DNA of 60,601 nt, taken from Candidatus Hermodarchaeum yapensis (lineage in GTDB: Archaea > Asgardarchaeota > Hermodarchaeia > Hermodarchaeales > Hermodarchaeaceae). How positions within the stretch are numbered: position 1 is the first letter of the stretch; every line of letters begins with the position of its first letter. Shown here piece by piece: positions 7,063 through 35,888 of the stretch. Below the pieces are notes generated by a model. It searched no databases. It was not told the origin of the DNA and saw nothing but the letters and a program-made list of their open reading frames with translations. The position numbers and the translations under genes were made by a program. Where the stretch lies: contig JAEOSK010000016.1 of assembly GCA_016840405.1 (NCBI GenBank), positions 1-60,601 of the forward strand. Direction: 5' to 3'.

Positions 7063-7172
7063 GTCACTGTAGCGGCGAGAAGTATTGGCACCTCTCTCCC
7101 CCCTAGAAAACCATTCCCTCTCCGATGTTTTCATTTTACCAGAGGTGTCTAATCCGCCAATGCTCCAGTGGC
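7063..7172 (+). ncRNA. candidate structured ncRNA, copy 1 of a dispersed two-copy element
   Basis: Long imperfect hairpin; 28-nt loop ctcccccctagaaaaccattccctctcc (7096-7123) identical to 35125-35152; stems covary between copies. Confidence 0.65.
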
Positions 7173-7292
7173 AATACACTAGTATTCTCCACATATCTTC
7201 TGGATGAAATTTTTTTTCTTGCATAGTGAGTAACTTTAAGTAACGGGGCTTTGAGCATAATTCAAACTAAATTCCTGAAGGAGTTTGGATTA

Positions 7293-7871
7293 ATGGAAAC
7301 TCATGAAGATAAAAGCGGACAAGCATTTCGAAAGTTTCTACGAAGAAATACAAGAATGGCATTAGCCATTACTATAGTACTCGCAGTAGCTGCTATTGTC
7401 GCAGTTTACGTATTTTTCAAAGTTGTAGCTGATGCACAAGTGCTAGGAATCGTGCCAACTACCCTTGGACTATGGTCCGTCGGCACAGTTTTCGTATTTT
7501 GCATCACAGTGGTTATCTGGGAACTTATCTTTGTCGCAATTTGGCTTATTCCAGTAGTAATAGTCATATTCATTCTATGGTACAGAAAACTACCAGAAGA
7601 AGAACGAAAAGAGTACGGTATGTCCCCCAAACGTGGAACCGACCCCCGACGTACCGAAGGCAGTGGGTTCTTTTCATTTTTGGTTAGTGTGGTATGGCTG
7701 ATAATTGTGTGGATCACCGGAAGGTGGACCCTCCCCTTTAATGCATGGACATTCAATGACTTCGTATATACGTGGTTTATCGCATTTCTCTGGATTCTAG
7801 TGCCTGCTTTCATTGCCGGGACAATATTCCTAATCTGGTGGTTGCGAAAAGAGCCAAAAGAAGAATCCTAA
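7293..7871 (+). CDS. hypothetical membrane protein (about 4 TM)
   Basis: Hydrophobic segments; AAGGAG SD before ATG 7293; T-run after the stop. Confidence 0.8.
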   Translation: METHEDKSGQAFRKFLRRNTRMALAITIVLAVAAIVAVYVFFKVVADAQVLGIVPTTLGLWSVGTVFVFCITVVIWELIFVAIWLIPVVIVIFILWYRKLPEEERKEYGMSPKRGTDPRRTEGSGFFSFLVSVVWLIIVWITGRWTLPFNAWTFNDFVYTWFIAFLWILVPAFIAGTIFLIWWLRKEPKEES

Positions 7872-11979: not shown

Positions 11980-13404
11980 TTAGTCGTATTTCCGTTTTCG
12001 GTAAAGGAGTATTGCCCCGATGGTTGTAACTAGTCCAATGAAAATCGCTTCGACCGGGAAACCAGGAATGGAAGGTGTTATTATCGGAATTGGAGGAAAA
12101 TCGTCAGGTATGCGTACAACCCACATGTCACCAGCTTGAGCCCCAAAGCTATTTGCCATGCCGATAGTAACGAAATCCCCGTCACTCGTAATTATTCCTG
12201 CCCAGAATTGATCAAAGTAGTTACCACCATAGGTTGAATTCCACAGGGCAGTGCCATTCGCAGCTGTCCGGATAATCCAGCCATCTGAAATGAAAGAAGT
12301 ACGGTAGTTCAGAGAGAAAATGGCAAAGCCCCCGTCGCTACACTCGGCGAACTCAAATGCGGCTTCAATATCAGTGTCCCCATAAGTCTGATTCCAAAGG
12401 TGTTGACCGTTTGCATCAATTCGAACTAAAAGCACATCTAAAGTGCGTTCTGTATTATTTCCTTTTGCTCCAATAAGTGCGAAATCACCATTCTGGCACT
12501 CCACAGCATAGGTCGCTGTATGTTCAGTCCCATAGGTTTGATTCCAGAGGTGGTTGCCATCAGCATCCACCCGAACCACCCAGCAGCCAACATCATTCTT
12601 GAAAGCGTCAGAATCAGCGGCGTAACTAAAATTACCAGTCCATCCCGTCATGAGGAAGCCACCAGTGCTCACTTCGATGACATTGTAACACAGTTCCCCC
12701 CATGTGGGATTTCCATAGGTGTAGTTCCACAGATGATTTCCATCCGCATCAGTACGAATCAACCAACTCTCGATGTATCTGAGGGTCGTATTCTCAGTAA
12801 AGCCCCCGGAGATGAACCCTCCATCGCTACATGCAACTGATTCGACAAAAAAGTCATCATCAGGTCCGCCATAGGTGTAGTTCCACAGATGATTTCCATC
12901 CGCATCAGTACGAATCAACCAACCATCGGCATCTCCACCACTATAGTGGGCAGTATGACTCGAGATGAGAAAGCCGCCATCCGACAAATCTTCCAATCTC
13001 ACGGATTTATGAAAGGGATCCATATGTCCACCAGCAATCATACCTCCACCATAGGTGTGATTCCAGAGATGGGTGCCATTTTCATCACAGCGAACTAGCC
13101 AAACCTCATCTATGCCTACCACTGCGCCATAGCTTGCTGTGCGTCCCGCGACGGCAAACCCGCCATCCGCGGTTTCGACAATCGCTGTCCCTTCTTCGTA
13201 AGCAATTCCACCGAAAATCTGGTTCCAAACATAATTTGTGGATACCATCGGTGCTAGTCGAGCCTGTGCACTTACAGTACCACTTTTACAAACAACTGGT
13301 ATGAAAAGCCAGGCACACAATAAGACAATTAATACAACTTGTGACCACTTGAATCGTGTCAAAGTGAAACCCTCCACTCGCGCATACTGTGAAGCATATA
13401 CCAT
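11980..13404 (-). CDS. exported repeat (beta-propeller-like) protein with PGF-CTERM-like anchor
   Basis: Signal-like N-terminus; ~50-aa repeats WLIRTDADGNHLWNYTYG; C-terminal PGF + TM + RKRK. Confidence 0.85.
   Translation of the reverse strand: MVYASQYARVEGFTLTRFKWSQVVLIVLLCAWLFIPVVCKSGTVSAQARLAPMVSTNYVWNQIFGGIAYEEGTAIVETADGGFAVAGRTASYGAVVGIDEVWLVRCDENGTHLWNHTYGGGMIAGGHMDPFHKSVRLEDLSDGGFLISSHTAHYSGGDADGWLIRTDADGNHLWNYTYGGPDDDFFVESVACSDGGFISGGFTENTTLRYIESWLIRTDADGNHLWNYTYGNPTWGELCYNVIEVSTGGFLMTGWTGNFSYAADSDAFKNDVGCWVVRVDADGNHLWNQTYGTEHTATYAVECQNGDFALIGAKGNNTERTLDVLLVRIDANGQHLWNQTYGDTDIEAAFEFAECSDGGFAIFSLNYRTSFISDGWIIRTAANGTALWNSTYGGNYFDQFWAGIITSDGDFVTIGMANSFGAQAGDMWVVRIPDDFPPIPIITPSIPGFPVEAIFIGLVTTIGAILLYRKRKYD
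12713..12923. repeat. perfect 55-bp direct repeat inside the exported repeat protein
   Basis: 12713-12767 equals 12869-12923; 156-bp period. Confidence 0.9.
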
Positions 13405-33519: not shown

Positions 33520-34983
33520 ATGCCTATGGATGATAAGACCTTCCAGCAATTCGAAGAATTCATCCACTCCAAATCCGTTGCAATCATCGGAACAAGCTCT
33601 TCTGCAGGCTACTACTGGCTACGGTCTTTCCTCGACTTCGGTTTTCCGGGCAAAATCTATCCCGTGAACCCAAAAATCGACGAAGACTTAGGACTCAAAT
33701 TCTATAAATCACTCAGCGAAGTCCCAGGTGATGTGGATTATGCAGTTCTTCGTGTCCCCGCCCGGATCGTTCCAAGTGTACTTGATGAATGTGTTGCAAA
33801 GAACTGCAAAGCAATTACCATCTTTACCAGCGGATACAGTGAATTAGGCACTGAAGAGGGACGACAACGCGAACAACTCATCACTGAAAAAATCAAATCC
33901 AGTCCTTTTCGAGCGTTTGGTCCAAACTGCATTGGCTTAGCATGTCCGGAAACCGGTTTTGCATTTCGCCCAGACTTAAAACCCAATCCTGGACCCATCG
34001 GTTTCGTTTCTCAATCAGGAGGCAAAGCCATTGACTGCTATCTAGCCGTTGTAGAAACACAACTTGGTATAAGCAAAATCTTCAGCTACGGCAATGAAGC
34101 AGATATCAGCAGCTGGGAACTTGTAGAATACCTCCACCGTGATCCCAAAACCCAAGTCATTGGCATTTACATTGAAGGCGTTCGGGATGGCCCTCGCCTT
34201 CGGAAAGCCATTGCCGATTGTGCAACCGACAAACCTGTCGTTGTGTGGAAATCTGGCATCACTGAAGCAGGAAAGCGAGCAGTATCTAGCCACAGCGCCG
34301 CCCTTGCAGGATCAAATGATATCTGGCAAGCACTCCTCCGACAAACGGGTGCTGTGTCTGTTGATAGTTTTGAACAACTCATCAACACGACTGTGACATT
34401 TTTGCGATGTCCGCCACCACCTGGGAAACGAGTTGCTCTTATTGCCATTAGTGGAGGAGCAGGTGTTGCTGGAACTGACTCACTCGCTAGGCATGGTTTC
34501 GAAATCCCCCGATTATCTCCTAATACCATTCAATCCCTGTCCAAATATATCAAGGATGTCGGCACCAACATCAAGAATCCTGTAGATATGGCCTCTAGTT
34601 ATTTCTACCCGGACAATACTGTTCAAACCATTCGGCATGTTGCGGAAGATAAGAACATCGACGCCATCATCGTTGAAGCGGCCCCCCATTATGTGAATTT
34701 CATGGCCAACCATATGGGAATGGACAATTTTGCCACAACATACTGGAACATGATGATTGAAGCAGGAACATATTGCGTCAAAGTCGTTCACAAACCCTTC
34801 TTCGTTGCAGTCCCAGCCATCGGATATCCACTTGAAAACCTAGCTACCCGGAATCAATTTCGTGAAGGGAACCTCCCTGTCTTTGCAACGATTGCTGAAG
34901 CCGCAGAGATACTTCGGTTCATTTACGAATATTACCAACGCCATCCCAAGACTCCCGTTCCGCCTGCCCTTGAATTGGAGTAA
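33520..34983 (+). CDS. ADP-forming acyl/acetate-CoA ligase alpha subunit
   Basis: SVAIIG, YPVNP, GPNCIG, SQSGG, SHSAALAG phospho-His, SGGAGV, NPVD. Confidence 0.93.
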   Translation: MPMDDKTFQQFEEFIHSKSVAIIGTSSSAGYYWLRSFLDFGFPGKIYPVNPKIDEDLGLKFYKSLSEVPGDVDYAVLRVPARIVPSVLDECVAKNCKAITIFTSGYSELGTEEGRQREQLITEKIKSSPFRAFGPNCIGLACPETGFAFRPDLKPNPGPIGFVSQSGGKAIDCYLAVVETQLGISKIFSYGNEADISSWELVEYLHRDPKTQVIGIYIEGVRDGPRLRKAIADCATDKPVVVWKSGITEAGKRAVSSHSAALAGSNDIWQALLRQTGAVSVDSFEQLINTTVTFLRCPPPPGKRVALIAISGGAGVAGTDSLARHGFEIPRLSPNTIQSLSKYIKDVGTNIKNPVDMASSYFYPDNTVQTIRHVAEDKNIDAIIVEAAPHYVNFMANHMGMDNFATTYWNMMIEAGTYCVKVVHKPFFVAVPAIGYPLENLATRNQFREGNLPVFATIAEAAEILRFIYEYYQRHPKTPVPPALELE

Positions 34984-35058
34984 ACGAATTGTGTTTGCCG
35001 GCTTACGTAACCTTTTATGGCTGTAAGGTAATTTATAACCTGGCGGGAAAAGGAAGTC

Positions 35059-35066
35059 TTTAAATA
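35059..35066 (+). promoter_or_regulatory. TATA box upstream of structured RNA copy 2
   Basis: TTTAAATA preceded by purine-rich BRE-like gaaaaggaag, about 25 nt before the hairpin. Confidence 0.5.
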
Positions 35067-35091
35067 AAAAAAAGAAACCTTATAGTTGGGA

Positions 35092-35206
35092 ATACTGGGT
35101 TTGGCGAAAGATATTGGCACTTCCCTCCCCCCTAGAAAACCATTCCCTCTCCCCTCCAATTGTGTCCTTTTTAAGGAGGTGCCTAATCCGCCATAAAACC
35201 CAGTAT
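35092..35206 (+). ncRNA. candidate structured ncRNA, copy 2 of a dispersed two-copy element
   Basis: atactgggttt/aaacccagtat outer stem, ggcacttcc/ggaggtgcc inner stem, same 28-nt loop as copy 1, pyrimidine tract after. Confidence 0.65.
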
Positions 35207-35285
35207 CTCATTTCTTCTTACATATTTTACTCTCTGATGTTATTTTGATGATGACTCTGAAGAAGAAAAATAGCTTAATTCAGGA

Positions 35286-35888
35286 ATGTTTAAGCATCAG
35301 TTTCTTTTAGATAATGTGAGGGATTCATTTTCTGTGAATGAGTTTAAGGTTTCTAGTCCGCCTTCATTGTTCACCCGTTTTCGAGAACGATTTTCGTCTT
35401 GGGGTCCTTGGCGACGAGTTTTTTTCATAATTGGAATTTATGCCCTACTGTCTTGTATTCTAATGTTGCTGTTCTGGATTTTTCCGCCTCCTATTATTAT
35501 CAGGAGCCCTGGGTGGGAACCATATGTTGAACTGGCTAGCAATTGGACAATTATCATTCCAGTGGGGATGATAGTTGTCAGTGTTTTTGTAACTAATATT
35601 GTGTTTAGGATTCCAGAGGATACACGATTTATTCTTCGATTCGTTACTCTCTTGGTTTGTGTTGAAATTGCTGTTCTAGCATCATGGAATGCTTTGGAGG
35701 CGTATATCAATTGGTACGTGATATTGGCTCCATTACTAGGACTTGAAATTCCAATCGACCCGTTTCAAAATGTATGGTTCTTATCTACTTTTCTACGGTT
35801 TATTGGTTTACATCGTCTGTTTGGTTTCTTGTTCCTTATTGGGTTAGGTGTCATGGTGATAGCACTACTTCTTGAAAATATAATCTAA
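35286..35888 (+). CDS. hypothetical membrane protein (about 4 TM)
   Basis: Hydrophobic segments; start uncertain. Confidence 0.7.
   Translation: MFKHQFLLDNVRDSFSVNEFKVSSPPSLFTRFRERFSSWGPWRRVFFIIGIYALLSCILMLLFWIFPPPIIIRSPGWEPYVELASNWTIIIPVGMIVVSVFVTNIVFRIPEDTRFILRFVTLLVCVEIAVLASWNALEAYINWYVILAPLLGLEIPIDPFQNVWFLSTFLRFIGLHRLFGFLFLIGLGVMVIALLLENII

Follow-up and report, generated by a model that had tools for sequence, protein, structure and literature searches.

What kind of product is made from a locus in which a long, interrupted stem encloses a loop that recurs, letter for letter, at a second locus? The window, that is, the whole stretch of 60,601 nucleotides of Hermodarchaeota (Asgard) DNA analysed here, holds two such members of a structured-RNA family, at 35088-35210 (+), termed copy 2, and at 7065-7170 (+), its sister gene, termed copy 1. 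An identical loop in both copies had been claimed from the letters alone, and this was confirmed: the same 28-nt segment occurs at 7096-7123 and at 35125-35152, two matches where none was expected in 100 shuffles. On the evidence presented below, positions 35059-35250 (+) are very probably a stand-alone non-coding RNA gene of this archaeon, from which the splicing endonuclease EndA and RtcB produce an 86-nt RNA ring. Neither the bulge-helix-bulge (BHB) signal on which this reading is founded, nor the 86-nt circle, formed part of the sequence-only reading.

The stems form a canonical hBHBh' motif, namely, an outer helix, a central helix of 4 bp (GGCG/CGCC), two 3-nt bulges on opposite strands (AAA and AUA), and an inner helix. 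In copy 2, the outer helix h (P1) pairs 35088-35102, of which 35092-35102 is the perfect 11-bp portion, with 35196-35210, as indicated by sequence, fold and covariation. The central helix H joins GGCG at 35103-35106 to CGCC at 35189-35192, a pairing upheld by covariation, and is flanked by the AAA bulge at 35107-35109 and the AUA bulge at 35193-35195. The inner helix h' (P2b and P3), found by folding and covariation, has its 5' arm at 35110-35124 and its 3' arm at 35175-35188, and encloses a conserved C/U-rich loop (35125-35174), which includes the invariant 28-mer (35125-35152), a probable A-run/U-run helix termed P4, and an apical core with CCUCUCC. Direct reading of copy 1 gave the same layout, with P1 at 7065-7073/7162-7170, H at 7074-7077/7155-7158, bulges at 7078-7080 and 7159-7161, and a predicted circle of 81 nt (7080-7160); this copy scores 95.9 bits with covariance model R1.

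The same BHB layout was read directly in all loci of the family. P1 measures 9 to 16 bp and differs in sequence at every locus, with pairing kept throughout. Variants of the 4-bp helix are compensated (GGCA/UGCC, AGCG/CGCU), such that 97% of its cells are paired in the 66 copies. The bulge on the 5' strand, directly after the 4-bp helix, is AAA, AAU or AGA, and that on the 3' strand, between CGCC and P1, is AUA, AAU or AAA. The handedness is that of pre-tRNA: in the 5' to 3' direction, the bulge comes after the 4-bp helix on each strand. The intron-bearing tRNAs called by ARAGORN in the same genome served as the control for this. The intron-bearing tRNA-Tyr (C36:11890-12021) has the same order, with anticodon stem, 4-bp helix and bulge on its 5' strand, and 4-bp helix, AUA bulge and anticodon stem on its 3' strand, the AUA bulge being the same as in copy 2.

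Covariation supports this structure. Relative to chance, the fold has a z of -4.4 on the plus strand and -2.2 on the minus strand. In a MAFFT alignment of 51 sequences, 85.2% of the cells are paired, versus 33-48% when the partners are slid, and double-sided changes occur in 25 of 29 pairs, values that were reached by none of 500 shuffles. The alignment of 66 copies, which is model-aligned and leans towards the model, gave 86.2% of standard pair cells versus 34-43% with the partners slid, and double-sided changes in 28 of the 29 pairs (11/11 in P1, and 13/14 in the inner helix P2b and P3); across both alignments, the observed covariation values were reached by 0-1 of 500 shuffles. G-U pairs are frequent, for example 16 and 16 at two positions of P3 in the 51-sequence alignment, and since these become A-C mismatches on the minus strand, the RNA is read from the plus strand.

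On that strand, copy 2 has the elements of a transcription unit. An archaeal TATA-box-like sequence, TTTAAATA, serves as its promoter at 35059-35066 (+); it was read directly, and every type-A ortholog, in either genus, has it unchanged, at a fixed spacing of ~21 nt 5' of the conserved GGGAA with which the helix starts. The GGGA at 35088-35091 is likely the transcript start. The distance of 25 nt from TTTAAATA to the perfect 11-bp stem (35092-35102/35196-35206), noticed earlier, was upheld by a check of the sequence, and so was the pyrimidine tract past the stem, with positions 35207-35250 being pyrimidine-rich and T-rich. Within it, the T-rich tail at 35211-35250 (+), which was read directly and whose counterparts in orthologs are T5-T7 runs within ~25 nt of the 3' arm, is a probable archaeal terminator region. 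A T5 run inside the ring gene could end some transcripts early; the conserved internal T run is, nonetheless, better explained as one strand of P4 than as a terminator. The view of copy 2 as a stand-alone plus-strand unit, already put forward by the sequence-only reading, is thus sustained by the conserved box, the T-rich runs past the 3' arm, the G-U pairs that exist on the plus strand only, and RNA in metatranscriptomes.

Pre-tRNAs are cut after the second nucleotide of each bulge, which yields the 7-nt anticodon loop. Because of this cleavage rule, cuts in copy 2 are predicted between 35108 and 35109, and between 35194 and 35195. The genome encodes the splicing endonuclease EndA (PF01974) twice, in frames of 188 and 202 aa (C14:43413-43667 and C36:10730-10990), and also RtcB (PF01139), with matches at two contig ends. 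By analogy with established archaeal RNA processing, and considering the motif and the junction described below, we infer that these are the processing enzymes: EndA would make both cuts in the bulges and RtcB would close the ring; RtcB would, in addition, ligate the two outer halves, leaving a hairpin with a 7-nt loop. Two separate EndA genes suggest an enzyme of the two-subunit, broad-specificity type, and one of them lies 0.9 kb from the intron-bearing tRNA-Tyr.

The predicted joint was found in environmental RNA. The conserved part of the element is present in 14 RNA runs, and four runs from four different studies were compared with positions 34990-35290; the evidence consists of assembled contigs that stem from related populations in the environment and cannot be assigned with certainty to this MAG. 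In each of these four sediment metatranscriptomes, one contig carries a back-joint, whereby 35194, the final base before the joint, is followed by 35109, going back 86 nt. In these contigs the shorter side of the joint measures 51-52 nt with 0 mismatches, and its position has an ambiguity of 1 nt, the shared A. They are 103-116 nt long and contain ring sequence only; the outer helix and the flanks fall outside the cover of the RNA contigs, which is a gap in cover and not evidence. The contig from the smallest run (X8, 22 million letters) has 116 nt (86+30), as a closed cycle does in a graph with k=31. Given that the joint falls exactly on the predicted pair of cuts, we conclude that an 86-nt circular RNA, 35109-35194 (+), is made, and that, at the level of contigs, copy 2 behaves as a substrate cleaved after the second bulge nucleotide and ligated into a ring. 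In a further case, from run X2, loose contig ends spell the ring junction of a relative's type C/D locus, where AU, the 3' half-bulge, is joined to the third base of the 5' bulge. The ring-junction pattern gave 12 matches in JGI metagenome contigs, a chance number, none of them the element, so that a DNA form is neither supported nor opposed.

These contigs bear directly on the alternative that fares best among those considered, according to which the gene makes a linear, stand-alone, anti-SD-like sRNA that captures translation-initiation regions, with the circle as a minor by-product. Some features do fit such an RNA, as the gene has its own TATA box, the CCUCC-type motifs of the loop resemble the 3' end of 16S rRNA, and SD motifs are in use in this organism. 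Yet the RNA contigs self-close exactly at the BHB cuts, in four studies and free of outer-helix sequence; an sRNA that is linear only would have no use for a strict BHB geometry with a covarying 4-bp helix; and scans of the genome returned no specific mRNA target. We therefore regard a linear product as unlikely.

A second alternative takes the circle as real and denies it a function of its own, the element being a selfish or relic BHB intron-like repeat derived from a tRNA intron or a mobile element. In favour of this reading, intron excision in archaea yields rings, and archaeal introns can spread from one site to another; at the type C/D locus, the exons left over fold into a hairpin, together with an acceptor-like stem that ends in UCCA. 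The genomic setting of the family argues otherwise. Covariance models locate five loci in this genome, namely, type A (copy 2, C41:35089-35209), type B (copy 1, C41:7060-7175), type C/D (C21:22055-22171), type E (C44:5832-5955) and the diverged type F (C54:12395-12511). Type A always follows the gene of an ADP-forming acyl-CoA synthetase, in both genera; type B lies between the genes of an acyl-CoA dehydrogenase and an H+-pyrophosphatase (H+-PPase); and types C and D are one locus, adjoining a B12-radical-SAM gene. Because this upstream synteny is kept while the downstream ORFs are not, the loci are stable paralogous genes, neither mobile repeats nor leaders of ORFs. Unlike a scattered repeat, they are syntenic across two genera and have a promoter-like box at each locus; they are absent from the viral contigs searched, where the core found no match; and the ring core is near-invariant beside stems that drift with compensating changes, a pattern that marks selection on the ring. 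Nor is there a host gene at these loci: ARAGORN called no tRNA in the window, and the 20 tRNAs of the genome all lie outside the element loci, which speaks against a tRNA intron; likewise, the rRNA genes, on contigs C71, C17 and C60, are not at element loci, which speaks against an rRNA processing stem. A selfish or relic origin without function is, on balance, improbable.

As a side observation, the type-F copy lies ~45 nt before an ARAGORN call of a tRNA-Arg(tct) with an 812-nt intron (C54:12556-13464); this call overlaps a 473-aa ORF on the minus strand and may for that reason be spurious.

Still less credible is a cis-acting, leader or riboswitch-like control of small membrane-protein genes downstream, a reading for which the fact that three loci of this genome lie 75-77 nt before a same-strand ORF can be adduced. 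The plus-strand ORFs after the two window copies (200 and 206 aa) are unrelated, as the sequence-only reading had stated for the downstream genes, with no mutual similarity and no Pfam family. The link with membrane-protein genes that it drew, however, dissolved once flanking genes were compared: it is an accident of this genome, as the downstream ORFs adjoin the element in only 2-3 close relatives, whereas the element and its upstream neighbours are kept in all. Moreover, T-rich runs separate the element from the ORF, and the conserved part is excised from the transcript. Taken by themselves, these two ORFs (35286-35888 and 7251-7871), which match no Pfam family and are confined to the nearest relatives, are lineage-specific genes.

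The last alternative, a minus-strand minimal ORF acting as a ribosome-sensing element, can practically be discarded: the reverse complement of the 28-mer does read as an SD-like sequence followed by ATG GTT TTC TAG in both window copies, but the conservation that this earlier proposal itself demanded is lacking, with Met-Val-Phe-stop kept in only 25 of the 66 copies (another 26 have a shifted frame that reads on, and 15 have no ATG, one-base changes in the length of the A run having put loci C/D and the sister genus out of frame), and the G-U pairs that turn into A-C mismatches, a BHB handedness that is canonical on the plus strand only, and a TATA box that serves that same strand all oppose it.

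The distribution of the family was established with blastn and two covariance models. Among 185,579 species genomes, the exact loop pattern occurs in 49 stretches, which come from MAGs labelled Candidatus Hermodarchaeota, 'Promethearchaeota' or uncultured archaeon, plus one Odin- and one Thor-labelled MAG. The element was found in all 18 genomes of the Hermod family, which span two genera, with about five loci each; outside this family, it occurs in only one genus of another small Asgard class, three of whose four genomes carry one locus each. A search with stricter filters of 129 other Asgard genomes, which sample the phylum, did not find it. A weak match in genome G143 (24 bits) was lost with a wider model and was left out of the counts. 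Independently of the loci, a 16-nt exact fragment of the loop, comprising the core and AAUUGUGU, lies in the same sense at C12:11989-12004 (minus strand), with no BHB around it; it could be a decayed copy or a separate use of the motif, and similar fragments of 16-20 nt occur in several relatives.

Having argued for a dedicated ring, we turn to its anatomy. The ring, of 81-105 nt among the loci, is a rod in which a small junction loop is followed by the covarying 14-bp inner stem, a C-rich internal strand, the short A/U helix P4 and the apical core. The latter, CCUCUCC plus its flanks, is C/U-rich and predicted to be single-stranded; it hardly varies among the ~5 paralogous loci of each genome, and it is the sole part kept in each of the six locus types as well as in the second lineage. 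Because of this constancy, we consider the ring to be the functional product, and the variable outer helix a processing handle only. P4, in which an A run before the core would pair with a U run after it, is probable, with modest support. In types B and E this helix reads GAAAAC/GUUUUC, and types A and C/D have the A-run/U-run form; the sister genus has gained an additional A and an additional U, and in the second lineage the orientation is flipped to U-run/A-run.

Known classes of RNA did not account for the ring. With the linear order scanned, no Rfam 15 family reached its gathering score anywhere in the window, and a search of 34950-35350 at E<=10 returned nothing but noise; the unmatched families include C/D box, H/ACA, SRP and Y RNAs and ribozymes. 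A C/D box RNA was rejected, as the ring has no RUGAUGA or CUGA boxes; a K-turn reading of the internal loop was also set aside, since direct reading found no tandem G-A pairs.

What the ring does may be approached through its exposed core. The loop carries CCUCC-type motifs, the 3' end of 16S rRNA reads ...GAUCACCUCCU, and SD sequences are in use in this organism, as seen from a 5-fold enrichment of GGAGG between -16 and -12 relative to crude ORF starts; the loop, judging from these motifs, may thus be an anti-SD-like binder, as had been proposed from the letters alone. Acting in trans, the C-rich core would pair with purine-rich RNA, such as SD-like GGAGG sites, which we hold as a tentative option. 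That the core instead binds or titrates a protein is a conjecture of the same standing. Whichever the partner, circularity would confer resistance to exonucleases and a high steady-state level. The whole genome was scanned for trans targets with blastn-short and with patterns that tolerate mismatches; apart from the genes themselves, the matches were at chance level. For rRNA pairing, the best duplex energies were no better than those of shuffled loops. At C71:5600-5800, 1.5 kb upstream of the 16S gene, a G-rich/C-rich hairpin was considered, which looks like a coincidence.

Two peculiarities of the stems deserve mention in this context. First, in type E (C44:5832-5955 and orthologs L161-L170) the C run of the core pairs with a G run of the same ring in a CCCC...GGGG hairpin, as though a target mimic within the ring masked the core. 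Second, P3 of the inner stem resembles an SD/anti-SD duplex (35116-35124/35175-35183 and 7087-7095/7141-7149), with a 5' arm like the 16S tail (CACCUC or CACUUC) and a 3' arm of GGAGGUG or GAGGUG, which may be a coincidence.

Several known systems resemble the Hermod element in part. In archaea, tRNA introns, rRNA intermediates and one permuted SRP RNA are known to form rings through EndA and RtcB (PMC12558985, PMC12918454, PMC7714728, PMC4731332). The closest in mechanism is the tRNA-Trp intron of Haloferax and Halobacterium, which is excised as a stable ring and is itself a C/D box sRNA (PMC12558985): here too there is an hBHBh' motif, cuts fall in two 3-nt bulges 4 bp apart, and the excised piece is circularised, in that case into a functional small RNA. 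The Hermod element differs in having no host tRNA, its 'exons' being a hairpin handle only, in lacking C/D boxes, and in forming a multi-copy family with an invariant C-rich loop and a promoter per locus. The permuted and circular SRP RNA of Thermoproteus (Plagens et al. 2015, PMC4731332) is likewise the product of a stand-alone gene that is neither tRNA nor rRNA, whose flanks form a BHB and which EndA and a ligase turn into a circle; however, permutation there restores a known universal RNA, whereas the Hermod ring, scanned in linear order, has no Rfam match, is small (81-105 nt) and is multi-copy. In the circular intermediates of pre-16S and pre-23S rRNA, formed from BHB processing stems (PMC12918454, PMC7714728), a long BHB processing helix also brackets a product that is ligated into a ring, but the Hermod element is unlinked to rRNA genes and its small RNA product appears to stay circular. 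The metazoan tRNA intronic circular RNAs, or tricRNAs (PMC4536317), share the ancient enzyme pair and the motif, and are abundant small rings as well; they are by-products of animal tRNA genes, whereas this archaeon has dedicated genes.

With respect to the loop, the nearest parallel is bacterial. The C-rich-loop sRNAs of the RoxS/RsaE type pair with SD regions, and they have in common with the Hermod ring unpaired C-rich loop motifs and several sibling copies per genome; the latter is, nevertheless, archaeal and circular, and no homology is apparent, there being no Rfam match. A full-text search of the literature found no description of the Hermod ring family, and the novelty is a multi-copy family of stand-alone genes in Asgard archaea for a conserved small ring with an invariant C-rich loop.

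It is possible, and we put it forward tentatively, that these genes exist solely to supply abundant circular regulatory RNAs that titrate, through their invariant C-rich apical loop, either SD-like purine-rich sites of mRNAs or a protein that binds C-rich RNA. If true, sponge-type Hermod rings would be a prokaryotic counterpart of the circRNA sponges of eukaryotes, built on the machinery of tRNA splicing. Sediment metatranscriptomes of as little as 22 million letters contain enough of the ring for it to be assembled. As Asgard archaea are the closest prokaryotic relatives of eukaryotes, whether dedicated regulatory circular RNAs existed before eukaryotes becomes a question that can be put to the test. 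The Hermod element also represents a natural and compact BHB cassette for making rings.

Two further observations concern other features of the genome. The 16S gene (C71:619-4212, minus strand) spans 3.6 kb versus a model of 1.48 kb, and must therefore contain large insertions or introns; its 3' end at C71 reads ...GGAUCACCUCCU. Within the window, positions 12227-13108 hold six direct repeats of ~60 nt, spaced 150-183 nt, which fall in an ORF on the minus strand (11980-13404); this ORF, of 474 aa and with no Pfam family, probably encodes a novel repeat protein.
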